A stretch of 64,000 bases of DNA from an uncultured Candidatus Saccharibacteria bacterium (GCA_964479955.1 CAYZNK010000002.1:71489-135488), one strand, 5' to 3'. Shown: positions 1,494 through 61,113, counted from the first letter of the stretch. Numbers and translations: made by a program. The notes: a model not told the origin generated them from the sequence alone.

Positions 1494-2613
1494 ATGGCAG
1501 AAAAAAACAGCAAAACAGAAGAATTGAAAAACAGGCTCCATCTTTTGATGGAGCGTCTTTGAGATTGATAGCAAAAAAATAAAGCTATCTGATTTGGAAA
1601 AGGAATCTTTAATGCCTGATTTTTGGAAAGACCCTCAAAAAGCGGCCGCAGTACAGCAGGAAATTTCTTTAATAAAAGAAGAAACTGAAGAAATAGAATC
1701 AACAGAAAAAGATTTGCTTGATTTGGAGTCTTTTGAAAAACTTTTATTAGAAGATAAAGAAATGGATCCGGAGATTGAAAAAAAACGGGGGGCCGTTGAA
1801 AAAAAAATAGAAAAGCAGGAATTTAAAGTTTTTCTCTCTGGAAAATATGATAAAAATAATGCTATATTGGAAATATACTCTGGGGCAGGAGGTCAGGATT
1901 CGCAGGATTGGGCAACAATGCTTTTGCGTATGTATGAAAAATATTGCGCAAGAAAAAGTTTCAAGATAAGCATTTTGCATCAGGCGTTTGGAGAGTCAGG
2001 AGGGCCAGAAGGAAGAATTGGCACAAAGAACGTTGTTGCGCAAATAAAAGGAAAATATGCATACGGATTTTTAAGAAGAGAAAGTGGCGTCCATAGGCTT
2101 GTAAGAATTTCTCCTTTTAATGCGCAAAAACTTAGGCACACTTCTTTTGCAATAGTTAATGTTCTGCCAGAATTGGATAACGCAGGCAATGAAATTAATA
2201 TTAGTCCGGATGATTTGAAAATTGATACATTTAAAGCTTCGGGTCCCGGCGGGCAATATGTAAATAAAACAGAGTCGGCTGTAAGGATAACGCATATTCC
2301 AACCGGAATTGTTGTTTCTTCGCAATCAGAGAGATTACAGGGGAGGAACAAAGAAAACGCAATGAAAATTTTGGAATCAAAACTTTACCAGTTAAAAGAA
2401 GAATCGCACGCAAAGGAATTAAAAGAAATAAAAGGAGACTTGGTTCCGGCAAGCTGGGGAAACCAAATAAGGTCATATGTTTTGCACCCTTATAAAATGG
2501 TTAAGGATTTGAGGACGCAGTATGAAACCTCAGACGCAGATTCTGTTTTGGAGGGAGATTTGGAGAAGTTTATAGAATCGCAACTGAGAACTATAACCAA
2601 CAAAAATGATTAA
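1494..2613 (+). CDS. prfB: peptide chain release factor 2 with programmed +1 frameshift: join(1494..1559,1561..2613)
   Basis: ORF0 MAEKNSKTEELKNRLHLLMERL ends at CTT TGA G (TGA 1560-1562). The +1 frame from GAG 1561 is the same frame as track ORF 1594..2613. SPF and GGQ motifs are present. Confidence 0.9.
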
Positions 2614-19846: not shown

Positions 19847-20728
19847 CTACATAATAGAGAGTATTTCAATCTCCTCTCGGAGATTGTTGATTTCATCTGA
19901 GAGAAGGGAAATGACTCCCTCTGTCTCAGTGATTTGGGTTTTCAACGATATGCATTCCATTGCATATTGACGGCGGACTGTTATTGATTTGGCTTGTCGG
20001 TTCCAATAGTATCCGGGTGAAACCCAACTTGTATGAGCGTTGCGGGCCGCTTGGAGCATCTTGCTCCTGAGTTCAGCCAAGGTTGTTCTTTCTTCCTTCA
20101 GCTGGTTTTCCAGGCGTAAAAGAAGAACTCTTTTTTCAATCGAGTTTTCAGTAGGCTCGTCTACGGGTCCGATTGTTGACTGGTAGAACCCGCCAGACAA
20201 TGCCGTTGAGATTTCCTCAACCGCAACCTTAACCCGAGGATGGAAGTCCATGGGTTTTGACCGGACTTCCGAAAAGAAAACTCGCACAGGCTCGTTCATC
20301 TGGCGCAAGCACCAGAGAACGCGTTCTTTCATCTTTGAATTTCCTGTCGCAAAAGCGTCTGTGAGCTCTGATACAGCCGCCAAGTTTATAAGCTGTACGG
20401 CTGCTTCCTTGGCAACAGCTCCGTTTGAATCTCCAAGCGCCAAAATCAGCTCTTGGGTGCTTGGCGGAACGCGTATTGCCACTGGCGCAACAGGAACTGT
20501 TGATGCACTTGACGCCGCAGGCTCTTCTGCTGGAGGCCTTTCTGCTGTTGCATATGACTCTGGCACTGCTGGGGCCGTCACTGTTTCCGACGACTCCGAA
20601 GAAGACTCTGGTTTGGCTGGCTCCTTTTTACCCGAGCACGATTGCATGACTGCAAAAAGAATAACAATCAGCACGGCTATGCCTATCCAAGTCTTTTTAC
20701 TGAACAGGTCCACTTTCGGCAGTTTCAC
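19847..20728 (-). CDS. orphan lipoprotein-like protein with a HEAT-like repeat and C-terminal coiled coil (GC-richer cassette)
   Basis: 293-aa ORF in a visibly GC-richer block. GTG start is preceded by aaggagag. Has a signal/anchor ending in ...MQSCSG, a Pro/Ala/Ser/Glu-rich linker and an LILALGDSNGAVAKEAAVQL HEAT-like segment. Confidence 0.7.
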   Translation of the reverse strand: MKLPKVDLFSKKTWIGIAVLIVILFAVMQSCSGKKEPAKPESSSESSETVTAPAVPESYATAERPPAEEPAASSASTVPVAPVAIRVPPSTQELILALGDSNGAVAKEAAVQLINLAAVSELTDAFATGNSKMKERVLWCLRQMNEPVRVFFSEVRSKPMDFHPRVKVAVEEISTALSGGFYQSTIGPVDEPTENSIEKRVLLLRLENQLKEERTTLAELRSKMLQAARNAHTSWVSPGYYWNRQAKSITVRRQYAMECISLKTQITETEGVISLLSDEINNLREEIEILSIM

Positions 20729-29592: not shown

Positions 29593-30459
29593 TTATTTCG
29601 GCTTTTCTTCTTTTGATATCTGGAAAGCTTTTATAACCGGTTCTAAATCTCCGTCAACTATTTTTTCCAAATTATGCCAGCTTTTGTTTATTCTGTGGTC
29701 TGTAATTCTGTTTTGAGGATAGTTATATGTTCTTATTTTTTCTGACCGTTTCGCCCAGCCAATTTGTTCTCTTCTTTCTATGGTTAATTTTGATAAATCA
29801 GCTTCTTCTTGTTTCCTTAATAGCCTGGCAGAGAGTAAAGACAAAGCCGTTTCTTTATTCTGCATTTGGTTCCTTTCTGATTGACAGGTAACAACAAGGC
29901 CTGTTGGCTTATGGACAATTCTTACAGCTGACTCTGTTTTGTTTACATATTGTCCGCCGGGACCTGAAGCTTTGTAAGTTGAAATTTCCAGATCAGAAGG
30001 GGAGATATTCACTTCGGTTTTTTGGGGTTTTAACAAAACCGCAACAGTTGCGGTTGAGGTGTGAACCCTGCCTTGCTTTTCTGTTCTGGGGATTCTCTGA
30101 ACCCTATGGACACCGCCTTCATTTTGCAATTCATCATAAGTTCCATTACCTGATAATTCAAAAATAATTTCTTTATATCCGCCTATCGTTGACTGATTGG
30201 AATCCAAAATTCTTTCTTTCCACCCTTTTTTTTGTCCGTATTTAGAGTACATTCTATATAAGTCAGCTGCAAAAAGACCGGCTTCATCTCCTCCTGTGCC
30301 TGCACGTATTTCAATAATCGCTGACTGCTTTTCTCCGGATTCAAAATTAGCGGACATCAAGTCTCCGTTGTTTTTCATTTGTTCTCCGTAGTTTTTCCAA
30401 TCTTCTGCTGTAAACTTTGAAAAATCTGGTTGTTCCATTTTATTCATAAATATTATCAC
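29593..30459 (-). CDS. prfA: peptide chain release factor 1, N-terminally short
   Basis: GGQ motif and RIPRTEKQGRVHTS (PxT position). Only 288 aa, and the AGTGGDEAGLF motif sits at about residue 55. Confidence 0.8.
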   Translation of the reverse strand: MIIFMNKMEQPDFSKFTAEDWKNYGEQMKNNGDLMSANFESGEKQSAIIEIRAGTGGDEAGLFAADLYRMYSKYGQKKGWKERILDSNQSTIGGYKEIIFELSGNGTYDELQNEGGVHRVQRIPRTEKQGRVHTSTATVAVLLKPQKTEVNISPSDLEISTYKASGPGGQYVNKTESAVRIVHKPTGLVVTCQSERNQMQNKETALSLLSARLLRKQEEADLSKLTIERREQIGWAKRSEKIRTYNYPQNRITDHRINKSWHNLEKIVDGDLEPVIKAFQISKEEKPK

Positions 30460-33149: not shown

Positions 33150-33208
33150 CATTGTGCGACAAGAGCCTCTTACGAGGCTTTTGTTTTAATTTATGGTATA
33201 ATATATTA

Positions 33209-34024
33209 ATGCCACGAGATTTTTATAACAACATAGAATATAAAGAAAGGCAGAGTGCGATAATGAAAGATAATTGGAAAAAGGGGGTTTTTGATTCTTT
33301 GCGAAAGAGTTTAAAAAGAAAATGTAAAATTTGTAATAAAATTTTTGAAGTTAAGCCAAGCAATCCAAAAATTTATTGCTCTCATAAATGTTCTGCCGTA
33401 GCAAGTAATACTGGTAGAATTCAATCAGAAGAGACAAAATTAAAAATTAGAAAAGCTTCGTTGGGCCGAAAAAGTCCTTATAAGGGAATAACAAAAACAC
33501 CAAGAGTTAATATTGTTTGTGAAAATCCCAAATGCAAAAAAGAATTTTTAGCAGAAAAATTTAGAAATAGAAAATATTGTAGCAACAAATGCCACATGGC
33601 AGTAACTGGTGGAAAGCCGACCTCGCCAAGAGCTTCAAGGGGCATGGCAGGAATCAGAAAAGATATAAACGATAAAATTTATTTTTATTCGCGCTGGGAA
33701 GCAAATTATGCGCGCCTGCTGAATTATATTGGAATTGAATGGGAATACCAGCCAAAAACTTTTGATTTAAAAACTCAGCACTACACGCCGGATTTTTATT
33801 TGCCCAAAGCCGACACTTATATTGAAATTAAAAATTTTTTGTGGAAATATTCTAAAATTCGCGACGAAAAATTTAGAAAATTATATCCCGCCATAAAACT
33901 AACTTTACTTTTGAAAGACGATTATTTAAAATTAGAAAATAAATATTCACATTTAATCAAAAACTGGGAATACAGAAATAGTCCATTTGAAGGTGGGTGT
34001 AAAATTCAAAAATTAATTGTTTAA
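33209..34024 (+). CDS. free-standing nuclease-like protein: Zn-ribbon repeats, NUMOD3-like motif and a C-terminal PD-(D/E)xK motif
   Basis: Contains CKICNK...YCSHKC, CENPKCKK...YCSNKC, SEETKLKIRKASLGRKSPYKG and YTPDFYLPKADTYIEIK. The ATG at 33209 lies 7 nt after TATAAT (33197-33202), so it may be leaderless. Confidence 0.55.
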   Translation: MPRDFYNNIEYKERQSAIMKDNWKKGVFDSLRKSLKRKCKICNKIFEVKPSNPKIYCSHKCSAVASNTGRIQSEETKLKIRKASLGRKSPYKGITKTPRVNIVCENPKCKKEFLAEKFRNRKYCSNKCHMAVTGGKPTSPRASRGMAGIRKDINDKIYFYSRWEANYARLLNYIGIEWEYQPKTFDLKTQHYTPDFYLPKADTYIEIKNFLWKYSKIRDEKFRKLYPAIKLTLLLKDDYLKLENKYSHLIKNWEYRNSPFEGGCKIQKLIV

Positions 34025-35713: not shown

Positions 35714-36094
35714 ACATATATAACAATTAAAAACATAAAGACAAAATCACTATATATTCTTCCCGTCATTGCGGGATCCCCCGCTAAGCGGGGGAAAAAC
35801 TAAACAGCGTTTTAAGAATATCCGTGAAGGCAGGTTTTAAAGGTCTGTCTTCACGGGTATTTTTTCTTCTTGGCTGAACGGAAAGCCTTTTGATAATTGA
35901 ATAATGGAAACCAGTTTTAAAAACTGGGAAAAAATTGAATTAGCGGAGTGTCCACAGTACTGAAAATTTCTACGAAAATTTTAGCGCTGAGAGAATTCAC
36001 TTCGTGTAATTCGTTTCTTAAAGTTGTTTCGAATCAAAGCTTGTCGAGTGCTTAACTCGACAGTAGTTTATTCTAACTAGAGTAATCAACTTTT

Positions 36095-37556
36095 TTTTGA
36101 GAGTTTGATCCTAGCTCAGGGTGAACGCTGGTAACGTGGATACCGGCATGCAAGTCGAGCGGACCGCAAGGTCAGCGGCGAACGGCATAGTAACACGTGG
36201 GTACAAACCCTTTTCTCGGGTATAGCCAGCCGAAAGGTTGGGTAATTCCCGATAGTTCTCGCAAGAGTAAAGTCGCAAGACGGAAAAGGATTGGCCCGCG
36301 GCCTATCAGATTGTTGGCAGGGTAACGGCCTACCAAGTCTATGACGGGTAGGGGGCGTGAGAGCGCGACCCCCATGAATGGCACTGCGACACGGGCCATA
36401 CTCCTACGGGAGGCTGCAGTCGAGAATCTTCCGCAATGGGCGAAAGCCTGACGGAGCGACGTTACGTGAATGAAGAAGCCCTTCGGGGTGTAAAGTTCTT
36501 TTATGTGGGAATAAGTTATTGAAGGTACCACATGAATAAGAGGATCCTAATTCTGTGCCAGCAGGAGCGGTAATACAGAATCCTCAAGCGTTACCCGGAT
36601 TTATTGGGCGTAAAGGGTCCGTAGGTGGTAAAGTAAGTTTTGAGTTAAACCTCATCGGCTTAACCTTTGAGCTATTCAAAATACTGCTTTACTTGAGGGC
36701 GTTATGGGTGAACGGAACCGACGGAGTAGGGGTGAAATCCGTTGATATCGTCGGGAACACCAAAAGCGAAGGCAGTTCACTGGGGCGACCCTGACACTGA
36801 GGGACGAAAGCGTGGGTAGCAAAAAGGATTAGATACCCTTGTAGTCCACGCCGTAAATGATGAATACTAGCTATTGGCAGTGTCGACCCTGCCAGTGGCG
36901 AAGCTAACGCGTTAAGTATTCCGCCTAGGAAGTACGGTGGCAACACTAAAACTCAAAGGAATAGACGGGGACTCACACAAGCGGTGGACCATGTGGCTTA
37001 ATTCGACAACAAACGAAGAACCTTACCAGGTCTAGAAATCTGCATGAAAGCCTTCAGAAACGTTGGCCCTTCACAAGACATGCAGACAGGTGCTGCATGG
37101 TTGTCGTCAGTTCGTGTCTTGAGACGTACCGTTAATTCGGGTAACGAACGCAACCCTTGCCGTGTGTTTTAAATGTCACACGGGACTGCCCGAGATAATT
37201 GGGAGGAAGGCGAGGATGACGCCAAATCAGCATGGCCCTTTGATGACCTGGGCCGCACACGTGGTACAATGGCCGGTACAATGGGTTTCGATGCCGCAAG
37301 GCGGAGATTAATCTCATCAAAACCGGTCTCAGTTCGGATTGAGGGCTGAAACCCGCCCTCATGAAGCTGGAATCGCTAGTAATCGCCAATCAGCTATGTG
37401 GCGATGAATACGTTCCTGAGTCTTGTACTCACCGCCCGTCAAGCCAAGCGAGCTGGGGATAGCCGAAGTGCCCGCAAGGGCCCTAAGCTAGATTCAGTAA
37501 GAGGGGCTAAGTCGTAACAAGGCACGGCTAGCGGAAGCTGGTCGTAGATCATTTTT
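36095..37556 (+). rRNA. rrs: 16S rRNA (stand-alone; no linked tRNA or 23S)
   Basis: Starts near gagagtttgatcctagctcag and ends ...aagtcgtaacaaggcacggctagcggaagctggtcgtagatcattttttt. Flanked by a processing stem (36013-36036 pairs with 37690-37713) and a terminator at about 37762-37790. Confidence 0.9.
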
Positions 37557-37840
37557 TTAAAATTTTGTATAGAAACCTTTTGGTTTATATACAAAATGGA
37601 ATGTAGTCGGCTCAGAGTGATTCGATAAACTCAGTTCGATGAGTATATCGAATTGTTCTGAAGCATTTTAGCAGATTTGCTTGAAAATCGCATTCGAAAC
37701 AACTTTAAGAAACTAATTTTTCCACAGAAAAATTATCCTGAGATTTTCGAAGGGTAAGACATTACTCCGTCAAAAGCGGAGTTTTGTTTTGATTAAGGTT
37801 GTTCTTGAAAATTAGTTGGAAAAGAATTAAGCTATCTTAT

Positions 37841-42056: not shown

Positions 42057-43073
42057 ATGAGTAATGTTGTTTCCACAAAGTCTGTAGAAGAAGCGAAACC
42101 CGTTCACCCGTTGGCTAATTTTATGCCAACATCTTTCCAGTCGTTTGACGATTGGCTTGCAAGGTGGAATAGTGCTACAGTTACGCAGGAAAGATTGGGA
42201 TTGCTTCATTGTATGCAAACTATTGAATATTGGCTTGAGAAAACCGAGCAATCCGTGTTTTTTCTTCTTGACGTAGCTAACGGATGGGAAACAGGAAACC
42301 CTTTTCGTTGTTATCATCGTCATTACAATGCTGATGACATCAATAAGAGTCGCGAAATCATTTCGCGCAAGGCATTTGATGTCTTATGCGTTAAATTGTT
42401 TGCTTCTGGCAAACAAGATTACCCGCCTTTATGGTGGTGGATGTTGGAAAAACAAGAGACTTTTGACAAACTTCTTAACTTTTGCGGCCCCGAAGCTAGG
42501 AATTATTATAAACCGTTTGCAGGAGGGCAGGTGAGCCACCAGGTGGAGGTGTATGGCAGTTTTCTGCAAGAGTTTAGCCGTTTGGGATGGACTTATTCGC
42601 GGCGCTCCAATAGACAAGGCGAGGTTGCAAACGAGGATGAAATTCGGGCGCGCCTTGTTGCTGCCCGACCTCAATTTATAGATATCCTTAGGTATTTGGG
42701 TCAACTTAATTGGCTTAATCGGCCGATGGGTTGTTATGGTGGTGACTTTCCAGAGCTTGATAAACCCTCTATTAGTAAATTGAGGGAAATCGTTTTTGAG
42801 ACAGAATTATTGCTCCCCCCACAGGATTTTCATTCGCCGGCAGAGCATAGCCGTAAGCCGAAGAATTTGCGCGAAGCTATTCTCGGAGCTTCTGTTGCTG
42901 CAGAAGTTCTTGTATTAAATGATATCCGTCTGGCAGAGCGCAATAGAATTAAGGCAGCTTGGAGAAAATCTAGGCGCAAACACGAAAATATGGAACGTAT
43001 AAGCCGCCTGGAAAAAATTGAAAAAGCAAAAAGGACTTTGGATGAGGAGGCCGCGCGGCTTACCGGCCAATAG
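42057..43073 (+). CDS. orphan hypothetical protein (GC-richer cassette)
   Basis: 338-aa ORF with tgggag 7 nt before the ATG. Trp-rich with a basic coiled-coil tail. Terminator cctccgc...gcggagg plus T7. No family recognised. Confidence 0.7.
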   Translation: MSNVVSTKSVEEAKPVHPLANFMPTSFQSFDDWLARWNSATVTQERLGLLHCMQTIEYWLEKTEQSVFFLLDVANGWETGNPFRCYHRHYNADDINKSREIISRKAFDVLCVKLFASGKQDYPPLWWWMLEKQETFDKLLNFCGPEARNYYKPFAGGQVSHQVEVYGSFLQEFSRLGWTYSRRSNRQGEVANEDEIRARLVAARPQFIDILRYLGQLNWLNRPMGCYGGDFPELDKPSISKLREIVFETELLLPPQDFHSPAEHSRKPKNLREAILGASVAAEVLVLNDIRLAERNRIKAAWRKSRRKHENMERISRLEKIEKAKRTLDEEAARLTGQ

Positions 43074-43187: not shown

Positions 43188-43370
43188 AGCTTTGTGATTA
43201 AAATCCTACCGCGGAGATATGAAAAAATTATAACAAGTCGAGACGAATAGGAAAGAATCGTTCATTTAATATTGGTTTGATAGGGTGATGCTTGGTTGAC
43301 ATTAGCGATTTCAAGTGATAAAGTTTTAATTGGCTCTTCTTAACTCTAAACAAGAAAGGAAAGGTGAGTC

Positions 43371-43610
43371 ATGGCAAATAAAATGCCAACAGTTTATCAA
43401 CTTATACCGCCACTCGCGGTAAGAATGACCCAAGAAGTTCACATCGGAATGGGCCCTGAAGGATTTTCCCTCAAAAAGCACGAACGAGGAATTGCTTCTG
43501 GTACTCTCGGATTTTGCACAATCGAAGGGAGACCCAGATTGGGATTCCAGGTCACTTTCGCGGGTTTGGACTTTGTTCTTCCACAAGAGTTCATAGAGCT
43601 CGTTCCGTAA
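43371..43610 (+). CDS. orphan small protein (GC-richer cassette)
   Basis: 79 aa with aggaaaggtgag just before the ATG. Promoter TTGACA-17-TAAAGT at 43296-43324. Terminator ggggtggctgaacagtcaccc plus T-run. Confidence 0.6.
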   Translation: MANKMPTVYQLIPPLAVRMTQEVHIGMGPEGFSLKKHERGIASGTLGFCTIEGRPRLGFQVTFAGLDFVLPQEFIELVP

Positions 43611-43668
43611 TAAAGTGAATCTCAATCCTTCCATGGTTTGTGCCTATGGGGTGGCTGAACAGTCACCC

Positions 43669-45499: not shown

Positions 45500-45823
45500 T
45501 TATTCAACGTATCCGCAAGAGTTTTCAATGGAGTAGTAAAGAGTGATTTCTGCACCCTCCTTGATCTTTTCGTGACAGAATTCTCCTTTGCAAGATAATC
45601 CTTTTATCCTGCAGACCAATTTGAAAAGCTGGAATTTGGTTTCGTCAAAGACGATAGACATCACCTCTGCTGAAATGGCAGTTGACTTCTCCTGATAAGA
45701 CAGGAAGAAAACAGGAAGATTTCCGGGACGCCTTTTAATGAGGGCTTCCCATAAGGGTAGGTTGGTTGGACCGTCTTTGACCAAGATTTTTTCCGTTTCT
45801 ATTTCCAATGCGGCGTTACTCAT
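45500..45823 (-). CDS. orphan hypothetical protein (GC-richer cassette)
   Basis: 107 aa with agggaga 5 nt before the ATG. Terminator gccctgc...gcagggc plus T-run at 45440-45478 (minus strand). Confidence 0.65.
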   Translation of the reverse strand: MSNAALEIETEKILVKDGPTNLPLWEALIKRRPGNLPVFFLSYQEKSTAISAEVMSIVFDETKFQLFKLVCRIKGLSCKGEFCHEKIKEGAEITLYYSIENSCGYVE

Positions 45824-46760: not shown

Positions 46761-47001
46761 GTATAGCCAAACGCCTTATATTTCATCTGCTAGTTTGCGG
46801 GATATCAATCCTTCGACACGGCTCAGGATCTCCGCTCGTTGTTGCTCGCTACGAGTTATCCACAGTGTTAAGGGTTGATTTGTTTTTTCAAAATAGGGAT
46901 AATAATATAATATGCAAAAAGGTCGATTTATCCGTTAAATCGCCGAAAGGCATCGGATAATTTAGATTTAATTTGCTTTATCAACTAATATAATAAAAAA
47001 T

Positions 47002-47688
47002 ATGACATATAGTGAATGGTTTTTATCAATTATCCAGCCGTTTTTGCAGGAATTTATATTCTTTTTGGCTAATTTGTTATTAGCTATTATTGTTTTCGTA
47101 ATAGGATATCTGATTTCTGCTGGAATTGGGAAATTGATATCAGAAATATTAAGAAGCCTAAGGTTTAACAAGCTCTTTGAAAAAGAGGGATGGAGAAAGG
47201 CATTGCAAAGGGCAAACATAGAGGTTAACCCTGCCGAATTTATAGGGGCAATTTTCAAATGGATTTTTGTGGTTGTTTCTTTGGCAGTTGCCGTTGATGT
47301 TTTAAACCTTACAATGTTTACAGGGCTTTTGACGCAGGTGATTAATTACTTGCCAAACCTGATTGCAGCCGTATTGGTATTTATTGTTGCAATAATCATT
47401 TCTGATATTATAGAAAAAATTGTCAGGATTACAGTTGAAAGATTAAAAGTAAATTATGGATATGTTGCTTCGTCAATTGTAAAATGGGCAATTTGGGTTT
47501 TTGCTTTTTTCTTGATATTGGACAGCCTTTTGCCTGCATCTCTTTTGGTTAAAACCTTGTATACCGGAATAGTTTACGGAGTAATAGGAGCTTTGGCATT
47601 AGGCATTGGATTGGCAATTGGACTGGGCGGAAAGGAAACTGCCGCAAAAATTATTTCAGAAATGCACAGAAGGTTTGAAGAAAGATAA
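47002..47688 (+). CDS. membrane protein with TM-helix repeats (mechanosensitive-channel-related pattern)
   Basis: 228 aa with 5-6 TMs. Tentative family call. Confidence 0.45.
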   Translation: MTYSEWFLSIIQPFLQEFIFFLANLLLAIIVFVIGYLISAGIGKLISEILRSLRFNKLFEKEGWRKALQRANIEVNPAEFIGAIFKWIFVVVSLAVAVDVLNLTMFTGLLTQVINYLPNLIAAVLVFIVAIIISDIIEKIVRITVERLKVNYGYVASSIVKWAIWVFAFFLILDSLLPASLLVKTLYTGIVYGVIGALALGIGLAIGLGGKETAAKIISEMHRRFEER

Positions 47689-48374: not shown

Positions 48375-49020
48375 ATAATTACATGATGAAAAAACAAACC
48401 AATAAATTTAACAAAACAAGCGGATGATTGTCTGACTTTTTGTGTTAGTAGATGACCGCTTGAATAAGCGGTTTTAAATTTATTGAAAATCAGTTTGCCG
48501 GCGATTGAAAATATAAATTGTTTTCAGCCGCGGGTTAATTGATTGAAGCGGAAGCAAAGATTGCTTTTTGAAAATTTAACCCTGTTAAATGTTTTAAATA
48601 ACAAATTGCCTACCAGCAATTTTTAACAGGTTCTTCCCAATTAATTTTAGACATGGGGTCTTTTTAATTGGGGAAAGTAGGTAAGTCCTGTTAAAATTTT
48701 AACAGGATAAAGCATAAAATTAAGTTCACATTTGCGTTGATGATTCAGCGCAAAAAAGTAAACTTACGCAAAAAGATAAGCTTAACAATTAAGTTTATCG
48801 AAGGATAGGTTATAAGCGAATGGCGGATGCCTTGGGATATTGATGCGATGAAGGACGTGGCGTGCCTGCGATAAGCATCGGGGAGGTGGCTAGCAACCTT
48901 TGATCCGGTGATTTCCGAATGGGAAAACCTTATTGTGTTAATCCACAATAACCCCGCCTTGGCGGGGAGCGTACCCGGTGAAGTGAAACATCTCAGTAGC
49001 CGGAGGAAAAGAGAACAAAA

Positions 49021-49289
49021 GTCCTACAACTTACAAATTTTATCAATTTAGCGAAGCGAATTTTGAGACAAATTCGCGACGCGAGGAGCAGTGCGTGCCA
49101 AGTGGCACGAGAGCGACGAAGCAACAAAGAATTTGGCCAAAATTCGTTCGCCCGAAGGGAAACGAAAAAAATGGCTGATTTCTTTGTTGCAACTTCGTTA
49201 ACGTAGTTAACACTATGTTTCCTCGTTGCGCCTCGAAATCATCACATTTTTTCGTTTCTAAATATGACGAAATTTGTAAGTTGTAGGAC
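49021..49289 (+). other. 23S insertion sequence 1 (IVS-like), closed by a 20-bp perfect helix
   Basis: gtcctacaacttacaaattt (49021-40) pairs with aaatttgtaagttgtaggac (49270-89). It lies between GAGGAAAAGA and AGTAGTGGCGAGCGAA. Confidence 0.75.
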
Positions 49290-49346
49290 AAGTTATATCC
49301 TTAGTAGTGGCGAGCGAAAAGGATACAGCCTAAACTAATTTTTTTA

Positions 49347-49505
49347 CACCGCTACTTTTTGATAATTTTCGTAACGAAATAAAATAATTTTGCGCGAGAA
49401 TTTGGAAATGCAAGGAGGTTTGCCAAGTGGCAAGCCGACGAGCAGTTACAAATTTGTAGCCGAAATTATTAATTGCAGTAGAAAAGTTATCAGAAAGTAG
49501 CGGTG
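49347..49505 (+). other. 23S insertion sequence 2 (IVS-like), closed by a 19-bp helix
   Basis: caccgctactttttgataa pairs with ttatcagaaagtagcggtg (one G-U pair). It shares a gccaagtggca...cgacga.gca block with insertion 1. Confidence 0.7.
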
Positions 49506-49861
49506 AAATTAGGGTTGTAAGGTTGTAGCGTCAGGAGCGTTATTTATTCTTCGTATAGTCGAAGAACGAATAATGCTTGCTGAGAGAGAAAATTTAGATA
49601 AAGGTTTTAATAGAAGCACTCTGGAAAGAGGCGCCATAGAAGGTAATAGCCCTGTATATAAAAAAACTATTTATGCTCTTTGCTATGATACTTGAGTACT
49701 GTCGGGCATGATAACCTGGCAGGAATCTACCGGAACTATCCGGTAAGGCTAAATAATCAATATCACCGATAGTGAACCAGTACCGTGAGGGAAAGGTGAA
49801 AAGCAGGGGGTTGACCCCGATGAAATAGTACCTGAAACCATTTGCTTACAAAGAGTCGGAG

Positions 49862-49943
49862 GTCTTCACCTTTTGGGTGTTGAGTTTAATTGTGGAACAA
49901 AACAATTTCCACAAAAATAATTTGACCTTCAAAAGGTGAAGAC
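49862..49943 (+). other. 23S insertion sequence 3 in the helix-25 region
   Basis: gtcttcacctttt pairs with aaaaggtgaagac, a 13-bp perfect stem. Confidence 0.7.
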
Positions 49944-50586
49944 TGACGGCGTGCTTTTTGTAGAACGAGCCAACGAGTTTGAATAATCAATAGTCTAAGC
50001 CCTTACGGGGCGGAGGCACAGCGAAAGCGAGTGTTAAAAGCGCGAAAAATTATATTGGTTGTTCAAGACCCGAAGCCAGACGAGCTTACCGCGAGCAGGA
50101 TGAACCCGGGCGAAAGCCAGGGGGAGGTCCGAACCAGTGAGTCGTGCAATTCTCTTGGATGACTTGTGGTAAGGAGTGAAAAGCTAATCGAGTTTGGTAA
50201 TAGCTGGTTCTTCCCGAAACAGCTTTGGGGCTGGCGTGTACAAACTATTTTCCGGGGGTAGAGCACTGAATAGAATTCCGTGGAGTTTCTCCAGGTCTTC
50301 TAATCAAACTCCGAATACCGGAAAAACTATGTATGCAGTAAGAACGCGGGGGCTAAGCTCCGCGCTCAAAACGGAAACAGCCGAGATCATCGTCTAAGGT
50401 CCCTAAATTAGGCTAAGTGCTAAGAAGGAGGTATTTTACCCTTGACAGGCAGAAAGTTAGCTTAGAGGTAGCTATCTTTTAAAGAGTGTGTAACAACCCA
50501 CTGCCCAAACTTTCCCGCTTGCGGGAGAGAGGGGTGAGATGCGCCAAAGATTTCCGGGGCTAAAGTCTAATACCGAAGACATGGAT

Positions 50587-50712
50587 TCATTCGCATCACA
50601 CTGCGTGTGATGTTAAATGACCAAAAACCAAAAACCAAAAATATTTAATATTTTGGGATTTGAGAATTGGAATTTGGGAATTTAAGCATCGTGCGAAGCG
50701 CGATGCGAGTGA
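50587..50712 (+). other. 23S insertion sequence 4 in the helix-45 region
   Basis: tcattcgcatc pairs with gatgcgagtga. It contains a CA-repeat / UG-repeat hairpin (50621-50683). Confidence 0.65.
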
Positions 50713-51003
50713 GTGGTAGGGAAGCATTCTGAGGGCATTGAAGCAGGAGGGTAACCGACTGTGGAGCGCTCAGAAGAGAGAATGTTGGCCTGAGTAACCG
50801 CATTGCGCGTGAAAGCCGCGCACACCGAAAGTCCAAGGTTTCCTTGGCAATGGTATTCAACCAAGGGTTAGGCGGTCCTAAGGCAAACCTGAAAGGGGTA
50901 GCTGACGGACAGTTGGTTAATATTCCAACCCTTTTTTATCCGTTCAATAAAGTGCGGAATTTAGTAGGTAAAGCGATTTATTGGATTATCGTTGTTAGTC
51001 AGA

Positions 51004-51030
51004 CCTGTCTGCCGTCAGGCAGGCGCAAGA
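51004..51030 (+). repeat. CCTGYCTG...CAGGCAGG palindromic element, copy inside 23S
   Basis: cctgtctg-ccgt-caggcagg-cgcaaga. Confidence 0.6.
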
Positions 51031-51420
51031 ATGGCTAACGGAAGGTCTCTTTATGGGGCTGACTTTACTGAGCAAGTTTCCAAGAAAAGCTTTATTTAAA
51101 TAGGATAAAGAAACCGTACCGTAAACCGACACAGGTGGACAAGCGTAAGTATGCTAAGGTGAACGGGTGAAACCTCGTTAAGGAACTCGGCAAATCAGTG
51201 GCCGTAAGTTCGCAATATGGCCTGCCCGACACGCAAGTGTTTAGGGCTGCAACAAACGTACTTCAACCGACTGTTTATCAAAAACACAGCTCTCTGCTAA
51301 CTCGTAAGAGGATGTATAGGGGGTGAGGCCTGACCAGTGTTGGAATGTTAAGTTTGGGGGTCCAAGCCGCAAGGTTTGGGCTCACTGAATGAAGCACCAA
51401 TGAACGTCGGCGATAACTAT

Positions 51421-52151
51421 AGACTGACGATTGTAGTTATAAAATTTGGCTATATGCTGGAAACTCCGGGTATGTTGAACTACTATCCGTTACTATGATA
51501 AAATATATAGTAATGGAAGTAAAAATGTTTAAACGCGGACAATCAGCAGGAAAGACTTTTGACGAGAAACTCGCTAACTACTTGAGCGGTTTTACTGATG
51601 GCGAAGGAAGCTTCAATATTTCAGTAATTAATCGTGAGAAAGACTATAAACACGGCTGGAAAATCAGCTTGTGTTTCAATATTTCTCAAAAAGATGACAC
51701 AATACCAAGATTATTTAAGGATTTTCTTGATTGCGGTAAAATAAGATACCGCAAAGATGGAATTTGTTATTTTGATGTTAGAAAAACAAAAGATTTAACA
51801 AATATTGTTGTGCCATTCTTTAAAAAATTTCCAGTGCGTTCAAAGAAAAATGAAACTTTTCAGATTTTTTGTGAGGCGTTGGAGATTGTTAAATGTAAAA
51901 AACATTTAACAAAATCCGGAATGAAAAAAATTCTGGATTTGAGAAATAAAATTGTAGTTGGCAGAAAAAGAAAGTATACAAATTCAGAGATACTTTCTAC
52001 TTATAATCAAAAGAATCCTCAGAGACTATACGCCAAACCCCGCTTAGCGGGGAAGATATAGTCCGACCTGCATAGCGATATGCAGAATATAATAGAAATA
52101 TTATATCAAGATACTAAAACTGACTTAATTTAGTATTAGTAACATAAAAAG
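51421..52151 (+). mobile_element. group I intron in the helix-69 loop (after the U equivalent to E. coli U1917)
   Basis: The exon ends ...gataactaT and resumes aatcgtccaaaggtagcg. Intron guide gtagttat (51433-40) pairs with the 8 exon nt ataactat via G-U at the splice site. The intron ends in G and has the core motif aagatatagtccgacc. Confidence 0.8.
51495..52061 (+). CDS. LAGLIDADG homing endonuclease (intron-encoded)
   Basis: YLSGFTDGEGSFNISV motif. The ORF lies inside intron 1 and ends within the core motif. Confidence 0.8.
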   Translation: MIKYIVMEVKMFKRGQSAGKTFDEKLANYLSGFTDGEGSFNISVINREKDYKHGWKISLCFNISQKDDTIPRLFKDFLDCGKIRYRKDGICYFDVRKTKDLTNIVVPFFKKFPVRSKKNETFQIFCEALEIVKCKKHLTKSGMKKILDLRNKIVVGRKRKYTNSEILSTYNQKNPQRLYAKPRLAGKI

Positions 52152-52815
52152 AATCGTCCAAAGGTAGCGTAATCCCTTGCCGGGTAAGTTCCGGCCCGCA
52201 TGAATGGCTTAACGAGTTGAAGACTGTCTCAACGAGGTGCCCGGTGAAAATGCAATAGCAGTGAAGATGCTGCTTACCTGCGGCTAGACGGGAAGACCCC
52301 GGAAGCTTTACTGTAGTTTGATATTGGGTTATGGTTTTTAATGCGTAGCGTAGTGGGGAGGATATGAAACGGCATTTTCGGATGTCGCGGATCCGCCAAT
52401 GAAACACCCATCTTTGGGAATTATAATTCTAATCCACGCCTCAACGGCGGGTGACAGTGTTAAACGGGCAGTTTAAGTGGGGCACTTGCCTCCTAAAAAG
52501 TAATGGAGGCGTTTAAAGGTCAGCTAGCTTCGGATGGAAATCGAAGCGATAGTGTAAAGGCAAAAGCTGGCTTTACTGCAAGACGGCTATGTCACGCAGT
52601 TGCGAAAGCAGAACTTAGTGAACCGACTTGTTTTTATAGAAAACAAGAAGATCATCAGCCAAAAGCTACTCCGGGGATAACAGGCTGGTAGAGCCCGAGC
52701 GTCCATAGCGACGGCTCTGTTCGGCACCTCGATGTCGGCTCAACTTATCCTGGGGCTGGAGCAGGTCCCAAGGGTCCGGCTGTTCGCCGGTTAAAAAGTT
52801 ACGCGAGCTGGGTTC

Positions 52816-52846
<31 letters not shown>

Positions 52847-52884
52847 ACCGCAGGCGTTGAGTTTTGAGGAGATTTGTTCCTAGT

Positions 52885-53667
52885 AAAATTTTGCTACTTC
52901 GTAAAGTAATTTACGATGACAATTCGGCTAATAACGGTGAAACCTTAAAAGTTATGGTTCGTTGATAATCATTATTGAATTCGGTCCAATAATAATGGTA
53001 CAATTAACTTGAGGACCAATAATAATTTAAGGCAATACCGTGGGAAGTCAATCTAAAATAAATTTATCATATATAGCAGGTTTTCTGGACGGAGATGGCA
53101 GTCTTATGTTTCAAATAAAGAAGCGCAAAGATTGCAAATTAAAAAGTAGATTTATGGCAACTGTTTGTTTTTACCAAGACGGTCGCCACGAAAAACCACT
53201 TTTTTGGATCAAAAGAATTCTCGGTATCGGTTTTATTTCCCGTCGTAAAGATGGAATGACCGAACTGAGAATAAATGGCTTTAAACAAGTAAAAGAAATT
53301 TTGCAAAAGTTAATGCCGTTCATTAGATTTAAAAGAGAACAGGCAAAAGCCCTTTATGGAGCTGTTAGTCTTTTAAATCAAAAAGAAACAAGGTTATTAG
53401 ACAAAAAAGATTTACTAAAATTAGTGAATTTTATAATAACCATCCAAAAAAATAATTACATCGCCAGAAAAAAGAAAACCAAAGCAGATATTTTTAAAAT
53501 TTTAGGTCTGACCCCGTAACGACTGATCCTGAGTCCTGAGTTTATTGAAGGACGAAGGAGAGATAGAAGTGAGATATCTTCTATAACATGCCGACTCCCC
53601 AATTCGCCAGTTGGCGAAAGGGAGAAGATATAGTCTATGCACGTGGTGACACGTGGTTTAAAACATG
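52885..53667 (+). mobile_element. group I intron inside the sarcin-ricin loop (after the U equivalent to E. coli U2656)
   Basis: The exon reads ...ttcctagT | intron | ACGAGAGGACCGG. Guide gcta (52893-96) pairs with exon tagt via G-U. The intron ends in G and has the core motif agaagatatagtc. Confidence 0.7.
53040..53519 (+). CDS. LAGLIDADG homing endonuclease (intron-encoded)
   Basis: YIAGFLDGDGSLMFQI motif. 159 aa with a GTG start, inside intron 2. Confidence 0.8.
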   Translation: MGSQSKINLSYIAGFLDGDGSLMFQIKKRKDCKLKSRFMATVCFYQDGRHEKPLFWIKRILGIGFISRRKDGMTELRINGFKQVKEILQKLMPFIRFKREQAKALYGAVSLLNQKETRLLDKKDLLKLVNFIITIQKNNYIARKKKTKADIFKILGLTP

Positions 53668-53985: not shown

Positions 53986-54098
53986 CCGGTGGCGACTATG
54001 CTGGAGTTGTCCCACCTGATCCCATTCCGAACTCAGAAGTGAAATACTCTAAGGCCGATGGTAGCGCTTATGCGCGAGAGTAGGTAGTTGCCACCAGA
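53986..54098 (+). rRNA. rrf: 5S rRNA
   Basis: ccggtggcgactatgc...cccattccgaactcagaagtgaaa...gtaggtagttgccaccag. Confidence 0.85.
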
Positions 54099-60801: not shown

Positions 60802-61113
60802 CTAATTTATCTGGAGTAGGCGGTCGTATTTCTCGCAATAACTATTTGGCAAACCGCAGCAAGAGAGGTAGCGAAGTTTCTTTTGGCTAATCGGAAACAC
60901 TTCGCCACATTTATTGCACCGGAAGGTTTCTCCAATTTTCACGATTTTGGCAAACAAAAACTTGACTACCGGTATGCCGCCAAACAGGACAGTTATAACC
61001 AAACATGCGTCAATAATCGGCACCGGAGTATGTATTTCCAGCGCAAGAGTCAGGAGAACAAACCATCCAACGAGCATCAATGTCACCAGGGTAATCTTCA
61101 GGATTTCAAGCAT
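60802..61113 (-). CDS. small two-TM protein with a C-terminal Cys cluster, paralog 3
   Basis: 103 aa with aaggaaaag before the ATG. Loop motif ALEIHTPV, then CNKC...CC...C. Terminator accccg...cggggt plus T7. Confidence 0.55.
   Translation of the reverse strand: MLEILKITLVTLMLVGWFVLLTLALEIHTPVPIIDACLVITVLFGGIPVVKFLFAKIVKIGETFRCNKCGEVFPISQKKLRYLSCCGLPNSYCEKYDRLLQIN

Follow-up and report, generated by a model that had tools for sequence, protein, structure and literature searches.

The anti-Shine-Dalgarno (anti-SD) motif of 16S ribosomal RNA (rRNA) is usually regarded as nearly invariant in Bacteria. A 64,000-nt stretch of DNA from an uncultured Candidatus Saccharibacteria bacterium (GCA_964479955.1, CAYZNK010000002.1:71489-135488; hereafter the window, with positions counted from its first letter) contains a 16S rRNA gene that ends in a run of U at the place of the anti-SD core CCUCC. 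The locus prompts us to ask whether a working ribosome can dispense with the anti-SD and, if so, how its start codons are chosen and how the programmed +1 frameshift of prfB, the gene for release factor 2 (RF2), is retained. Taken as a whole, we hold the following explanation to be highly probable. The gene encodes a functional 16S rRNA in which a U-run replaces the anti-SD core, and this is an inherited trait of a whole lineage, not an error or a sign of a pseudogene. The genes have lost their SD motifs in step with the anti-SD, so that initiation is SD-independent, and a hairpin in the prfB mRNA appears to have taken over the role of the SD helix at the frameshift site.

The 16S gene occupies positions 36093..37559 of the plus strand and matches the Rfam model RF00177 over its full length (model positions 1-1533, 1346 bits). 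The window holds one rRNA gene of each kind, with the 23S gene at 48803-52881 and the 5S gene at 53988-54096; the 16S and 23S genes are separated by 11 kb containing protein genes and a tRNA gene. Helix 45 (37524..37545, plus strand) has 9 bp and a GGAA loop, ACGGCUAGC-GGAA-GCUGGUCGU (ACGGCTAGC-GGAA-GCTGGTCGT in DNA). It is followed by AGATCA (37546-37551), seven T (37552-37558), four A (37559-37562) and TTTTG, which gives a 3' tail AGAUCA-U7-A4 at 37546..37562 of the plus strand. In the Rfam alignment, the model 3' end gGAUcACCUCCUUu is matched to AGAUCAUUUUUUUA of the gene with maximal posterior probability, and AGAUCAUUUUUUUA stands at the place of the model's GGAUCACCUCCUUU. GAUCA is retained (37547-37551), and UUUUU (37552-37556) fills the CCUCC position, giving AGAUCAUUUUUUUAAAA. 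The gene has the full-length small-subunit fold and the helix 45 with its GGAA loop; what it does not have is GAUCA followed by CCUCC. Helix and tail are as described in the original prediction, which was made from the sequence without database searches.

A displaced anti-SD upstream of the pre-16S processing stem was considered and ruled out. On the plus strand, no CCTCC occurs between 37206 and 39475, so 1.9 kb downstream of the 16S gene are free of the motif, and the next copy (39475) falls within a saccharopine-dehydrogenase-like gene. The processing stem, whose existence had also been predicted, is formed by the arms 36008..36034 and 37692..37718 (both on the plus strand, 27 nt, 96% complementary), and there is no CCUCC between the tail and the 3' arm. 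The spacer directly after the tail contains an inverted repeat with 16-nt arms and a 4-nt loop (37562..37597, plus strand). In relatives the same spot is taken by non-homologous hairpins or by none, followed by a conserved GTAGTCGRCT block. The hairpin of the window could be a processing element or protect the 3' end.

An assembly error at the 3' end of the gene was among the refutations that the original prediction had foreseen, and it can be set aside. Via greA, which lies next to the 16S gene, we located a separate assembly of run SRR8925719 from Logan (L200); it does not differ from the window anywhere between helix 45 and the end of the spacer, and related species share the tail. The nearest GTDB species representatives by 16S identity are L091 (94.4%), L103 (92.7%), L036 (91.6%) and L048 (91.3%). 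Several of these nearest relatives, at 91-94% identity, are labelled Staskawiczbacteria, with a lineage that runs from the Patescibacteria group to the Parcubacteria group, and the window is accordingly best assigned to a Staskawiczbacteria-like genome of the Parcubacteria. All of the nearest relatives have GATCA-T7/8-A3-6, and beyond it the similarity collapses; the tail is kept in six related species, the adjoining spacer is not. The fifth pair of helix 45 is C-G in the relatives (ACGGGUAGC/GCUGCUCGU) and G-C in the window, a compensatory swap which indicates that the 16S gene is under purifying selection.

The trait extends far beyond these relatives. We scanned one genome per GTDB species for the helix-45 anchors of 16S followed by GATCA and five A/T bases, and found an A/U-only pentamer in place of CCUCC in at least 119 species, nearly all of them Patescibacteria. 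These loci belong to Paceibacterota, Staskawicz-, Nealson-, Lipton-, Harrison- and Jorgensenbacteria and to many metagenome-assembled genomes (MAGs) labelled Saccharibacteria; the cultured Minisyncoccus archaeiphilus is among the species. The pentamers form families, and the matches listed include 52 with ATTAA, 17 with TTTAT, 16 with TTTTT and 10 with ATTAT, besides others. At least 52 species have the longer tail GATCAATTAAACTA, some of them with genomes of about 54% GC; TTTATTTTTT and ATTATTTTTT represent further tail families. Among the listed matches, a 23S gene lies within 8 kb of the 16S gene in only 7 of 119 loci, and unlinked rRNA genes are therefore the rule in these lineages.

A/U-tailed 16S genes were also seen in MAGs labelled Cytophagales, Desulfosporosinus, Omnitrophota and Gastranaerophilales (L064, L067, L036, L040, L015). 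All of them except the Cytophagales one have a helix 45 of the type found in the Candidate Phyla Radiation (CPR), CAC...GTG. The oddly labelled MAGs are likely binning contaminants, and L064 may be a genuine Bacteroidota case.

The distribution of the tails bears on the alternative that survives best, namely that the tail itself is functionless. The end of mature 16S rRNA would then lie at GAUCA or immediately beyond it, with the U/A stretch as a spacer removed in processing. The replacements vary by lineage and are always A/U-only, as for a relaxed sequence or a nuclease-accessible linker, and a variable hairpin follows directly after the tail. However, T7-8 A3-6 shows the same degree of conservation in the family as the rRNA proper, while the next bases are not alignable, and the presence of GATCAATTAAACTA in at least 52 species that include genomes of about 54% GC argues for constraint, not drift. 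We consider a tail removed as spacer unlikely. The conservation of A/U tails hints at some constraint; as a weaker additional proposal, the conserved tails (U7A4 here, AUUAAACUA in at least 52 species) may have gained some new function.

Gene starts in the window were examined for traces of SD pairing. We curated 53 starts, including those of enolase, GAPDH, PPDK, aldolase, acetate kinase, FtsZ, S2, EF-Ts, L25, GreA and YchF. At each position from -20 to -1 the frequency of G is 2-23% and that of A is 40-60%, there is no SD peak, and none of the 53 starts is preceded by GGAGG, so the absence of SD motifs noted in the original prediction holds as a general one. The same flat low-G profile is seen in 495 genes adjoining the anti-SD-less 16S genes of relatives, in every tail class. 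Of all parts of the transcripts in the window, the start regions have the least structure, with a mean minimum free energy (MFE) of -3.3 kcal/mol per 50 nt versus about -6 (p = 1e-4). Starts would be chosen via G-poor, A-rich, weakly structured regions, akin to the upstream-adenine, low-structure mode of Bacteroidia.

A part of the transcripts may lack leaders altogether. In relatives, hexamers resembling the -10 promoter box peak 6-8 nt before ATG (71 of 495 genes), with 33, 15 and 23 cases at spacings of 6, 7 and 8 nt, respectively, versus about 5 at other positions. The ATTAA tail class contributes 44 such genes out of 233 (19%). A -10 box at this spacing from ATG is a classic sign of leaderless transcripts, and the peak suggests that a sizeable share of transcripts in the related anti-SD-less lineages (Paceibacteria) is leaderless. 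The best candidates in the window, both on the plus strand, are the start at 33209 (TGGTATAAT, 6 nt, then ATG; 33194..33211) and that of a mechanosensitive-channel gene at 47002 (TATAAT, 7 nt, then ATG; 46989..47004). Our reading of these patterns is that the genome of the window would mainly use A-rich unstructured leaders, plus some leaderless mRNAs.

The A-rich start regions invite the speculation, voiced in the original prediction, that the U-run tail is a new anti-SD which pairs with A-runs upstream of starts and positions the mRNA. A4 runs do occur in 66% of the -22..-1 regions versus 49% in shuffles (z +3.4), TTTAAA, a part of the exact tail complement, occurs in 21% versus 8% (z +3.3), and the coverage by A-runs climbs to 23-25% at -10..-1. 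But when the tail GAUCAUUUUUUUAAA is paired with sliding 12-nt mRNA windows at the 53 starts, the mean duplex energy is flat from -50 to -1 (-1.0 to -1.2 kcal/mol), with no trough at the SD distance; the only dip is over AUG itself, which pairs with CAU of the tail. A5 and A6 runs are not above the expectation from composition (A5 z -0.2), the nearest A-run ends 0-4 nt from ATG in 19 of the 53 genes, too close for SD geometry, and extended tail complements in the window number 24 against 27 +/- 5 expected. As a separate possibility, pairing of an A-run together with AUG to CAUUUU of the tail was rejected, given that the A-run directly abuts ATG in only three of 53 genes.

Comparison across lineages is no kinder to this speculation. 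A matrix of tail classes and motifs, built on the mean longest match to the complement of the own tail, has no diagonal. In the ATTAA class (233 genes) the complement of the class's own tail has z -0.5, but those complements of other tails that are A-rich and contain ATAAT reach z +6.7 to +8.0. A-runs are not enriched in the TTTAT class, U-rich as its tail is. The ATTAT class, with AAAAA at 47% of starts (z +5.0), does fit the speculation. We found no tail-matching motif at the SD distance that changes together with the tail, as a covaried alternative SD:anti-SD pair would have. The same AAAA motifs, complementary to the variant tails of other anti-SD-less organisms, were judged unlikely to be functional by Amin et al. 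2018. A-richness upstream of starts characterises these lineages in general and is no partner of the tail, and a new anti-SD made of the U-run is improbable.

Slightly less probable again is that the new tail persists because it pairs with one mRNA or a few particular ones, after the model of Flavobacteriales, in which alternative anti-SD sequences and the SD of rpsU covary. Besides this precedent and the conservation of the tail within the family, the idea can draw on TTTAAAAATATGATA, a tail complement with two mismatches at 1468-1482, 12-26 nt upstream of the prfB start. This match shares positions with a TATGAT box that resembles a -10 element, and it probably arose by chance. Tail complements are not enriched in the window, the 64 kb contain no bS21 gene, and the single bS21-like gene found beside an anti-SD-less 16S gene (L024) has no tail complement upstream.

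The remaining alternative, an artefact or non-working gene (an assembly error, a pseudogene, or a CCUCC-bearing other rrs copy or spliced segment), is close to negligible and already largely refuted: only one rrs copy is visible in the 64 kb, and CPR rRNA genes often hold insertions, as does the 23S gene of the window with about 1.1 kb of them, but the independent assembly has exactly the same tail, six related species share it, helix 45 shows a compensatory change against relatives, A/U tails recur in at least 119 species, the Rfam match is full length, no CCTCC follows for 1.9 kb, the loss has been published at the level of the clade, and SD motifs are absent at gene starts.

The second part of the question concerns prfB, since its +1 frameshift site is the one site at which ribosomes normally depend on SD:anti-SD pairing during elongation. 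The prfB gene of the window lies at 1494..2613 on the plus strand, with an initial open reading frame (ORF0) at 1494-1562 that ends in CUU UGA (1557-1562) and the RF2 body continuing in the +1 frame to 2613. ORF0 ends in AUG GAG CGU CUU UGA and contains GGAG (1550-1553) three nt before CUU (1557-1559). The original prediction had counted this GGAG, at the canonical position of the SD-like stimulator, as evidence against the loss of SD pairing. The sequence is as described, but the interpretation is not upheld: GGAG is not usable as an SD stimulator because there is no anti-SD to pair with, and it forms the 3' strand of a covarying hairpin. The cassette has the ORF0 ending in CUU UGA and the RF2 body in the +1 frame; a stimulator that pairs with an anti-SD is what it does not have.

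The hairpin, GCUCCAUC-UUUU-GAUGGAGC (1535..1554, plus strand), has 8 bp, ends 2 nt before CUU and holds GGAG in its 3' strand. Its MFE is -15.2 kcal/mol (z -2.96), and none of 200 shuffles is as stable. A metagenome scan with RF2 returned 80 related loci, of which 63 have an in-frame CTTTGA. A hairpin in the same register is present in 19 loci with 51-76% RF2 identity (within L120-L197), where the stems vary widely and are UCCUC/GAGGA, UCCGAC/GUCGGA, UCCCGA/UCGGGA, UCGCUC/GAGCGA, UCCUGG/CCAGGA and UCUCA/UGAGA. In the alignment of these 19 relatives, 80% of cells pair versus 59.7% in shuffles (0/500), and the covariation score is 0.533 versus 0.170 in shuffles (0/500), with slid controls reaching at most 0.10. 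The six core pairs are paired in 91% of cases; at one hairpin pair AU, CG and UA each occur six times and GC and GU once, with none unpaired. In either strand of the stem, the substitutions change the amino acids that are encoded, which means that selection acts on the RNA. Core G-U pairs outnumber A-C pairs by 5 to 2, mildly favouring the plus-strand RNA. As a different explanation of the hairpin, an intrinsic terminator was considered and dropped, for the hairpin is not flagged as one on the plus strand.

The genes flanking the 19 hairpin loci are SD-free (G 9-20%), and most of the hairpin relatives have GGAC, which is not an SD, at the position of GGAG. As a negative control we used 36 more distant RF2 loci. 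Their pairing in the same register (33%) and covariation (0.070) are both not above shuffles. The flanks checked for 31 of the 36 loci have an SD bump (G 33-38% at -12..-5). What these SD-using loci have instead of the hairpin, three nt before CUU, is an invariant UGG(U/A)GC.

A hairpin at this place has a precedent in engineered systems. In the reconstituted 70S system of Huang, Cho & Chang 2018, a stable hairpin placed directly against the E site raised +1 frameshifting on CUUUGA to about 60% of the level reached with SD stimulation; the effect was seen only without RF2, and it was termed functional mimicry of the SD:anti-SD duplex. Covariation, taken together with that in vitro work, suggests that an mRNA hairpin next to the E site would supply the stimulatory duplex in cis at prfB. 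It is probable, as far as comparison of sequences can tell, that anti-SD-less Parcubacteria kept the autoregulatory +1 shift of prfB by means of a 6-8 bp mRNA hairpin 2-4 nt before CUU UGA, whose 3' strand would derive from the old SD-like element and whose 5' strand would act as an 'anti-SD' in cis. We found no natural prfB hairpin described in the literature as a frameshift stimulator; a 2025 survey of prfB frameshifting in more than 12,000 genomes and a study of F. johnsoniae prfB mention neither hairpins nor CPR. If the proposal is true, it would be the first natural case of a hairpin mimicking the SD helix, so far known only as an engineered one.

Several observations weigh against our explanation or parts of it. 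The mature 16S end could be trimmed or extended relative to the tail of the gene, and the one rrs copy is what is visible within a 64-kb window. The low structure of start regions is an effect of composition (GC 23% there, z versus shuffles about 0), and the proposed mechanism of unstructured A-rich leaders rests on composition and predicted folding. The leaderless peak is weak in the window (6 of 53 genes) and in its own tail class (4 of 63). For the 19 prfB relatives, the anti-SD status is deduced from their SD-free flanks and not from their 16S. Only the window joins the prfB hairpin and an anti-SD-less 16S gene on one contig: one other prfB locus carries a 16S fragment, which does not include the 3' end, and the release-factor matches in the 16S loci of relatives, at 34-41% identity, are too weak to count as prfB and are presumably RF1.

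SD-like 4-mers, finally, stand at 15% of the starts versus 5% in shuffles. They are found mostly at minus-strand ORFs without a Pfam match and with a GC content of 42-49% versus 34-38% in the backbone. The ORFs of this raised-GC kind are 19847-20728, 43326-43634, 45500-45823 and 60802-61113 on the minus strand and 42057-43073 on the plus strand, and several of them are preceded by SD-like motifs (AAGGAGAG, AGGGAGA, GGGAG and AAAGGAAAAG). They are probably foreign DNA bearing SD signals to which the ribosome of the host cannot respond by pairing.

Other features of the window concern the 23S gene and a second release factor. The 23S gene spans 4079 nt versus 2925 nt of the model, owing to about 1.1 kb of insertions, and contains a LAGLIDADG endonuclease ORF (51495-52061); a second LAGLIDADG ORF (53040-53519) follows the end of the 23S gene and precedes the 5S gene. 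On the minus strand (29593-30459) there is another class-I release factor gene, which has PCRF and RF-1 domains and presumably encodes RF1. Its PCRF match begins only at profile position 63, so that either the N-terminal domain is short or the start is mis-set.

The core of these results, the loss of the anti-SD in a subgroup of Parcubacteria, is not new, even if the knowledge of it has yet to spread widely. Tsurumaki, Saito, Tomita & Kanai 2022 (RNA 28:1041) detected the anti-SD motif CCTCCT in only 48% of Parcubacteria; it was missing in a subgroup overlapping with the lineages that lack uL1, where SD helices are presumably not formed. We found nothing else in the literature on anti-SD loss in CPR. 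The present analysis adds the tail families and their breadth, the leaderless signatures of the clade, and, as an account of the seeming SD remnant in prfB, a hairpin that covaries. With at least 119 species-level lineages of Patescibacteria without an anti-SD, the view of this motif as 'nearly invariant' does not hold for them, and the clade offers a natural system for studying start-codon choice without SD pairing and the other needs that the 16S tail serves. The practical effect is modest: gene finders and annotation of 16S 3' ends should not presume SD pairing here. If our reading of the prfB hairpin is true, a function of the anti-SD in the elongation phase was rescued in cis after the loss of the rRNA partner.

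Among known systems, the subgroup of Tsurumaki et al. 2022 is the closest, being the same clade with the same trait. The window fits it by its Parcubacteria/CPR affiliation (from 16S) and by having no CCTCCT at the 16S 3' end; rplA, the gene for uL1, is not among the annotated ORFs of the 64 kb, which are a part of the genome only. Their report describes the absence of the motif, and not replacement sequences, gene starts or prfB. In other phyla, anti-SD loss with no covaried replacement SD was described by Lim et al. 2012 and Amin et al. 2018, in work that also dismissed AAAA motifs. Chryseobacterium and its relatives, Blattabacterium, Mycoplasma and Carsonella resemble the window in that a lost or altered anti-SD goes with an absence of SD motifs; unlike it, they are mostly host-restricted or members of Flavobacteriales, and neither survey included CPR. 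In some Flavobacteriales an alternative anti-SD and the SD of rpsU covary (NAR 2026), and the same work continues to describe CCUCC as nearly invariant, the rare exceptions being mostly Flavobacteriales.

The SD-blind ribosomes of Bacteroidia (F. johnsoniae; NAR 2026, RNA 2024) share with the window the absence of SD motifs and the A-rich, G-poor, weakly structured starts. However, Bacteroidia keep CCUCC, sequestered by bS21, bS18 and bS6, and retain an SD in prfB and rpsU, whereas in the window the anti-SD is gone and prfB has a hairpin. Mammalian mitochondrial small-subunit rRNA also lacks the anti-SD and keeps helix 45 with an adjacent conserved single-stranded site, although it belongs to an organelle ribosome and the loss was evolutionarily independent. 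For prfB, the likeness to the E. coli cassette (SD-like AGGGGG, 3 nt, CUU UGA) and to its engineered mimics consists in CUU UGA with a duplex abutting the E site; in the window this duplex, known from sequence, is natural, intramolecular and only 6-8 bp long, and would serve an organism that has no anti-SD.

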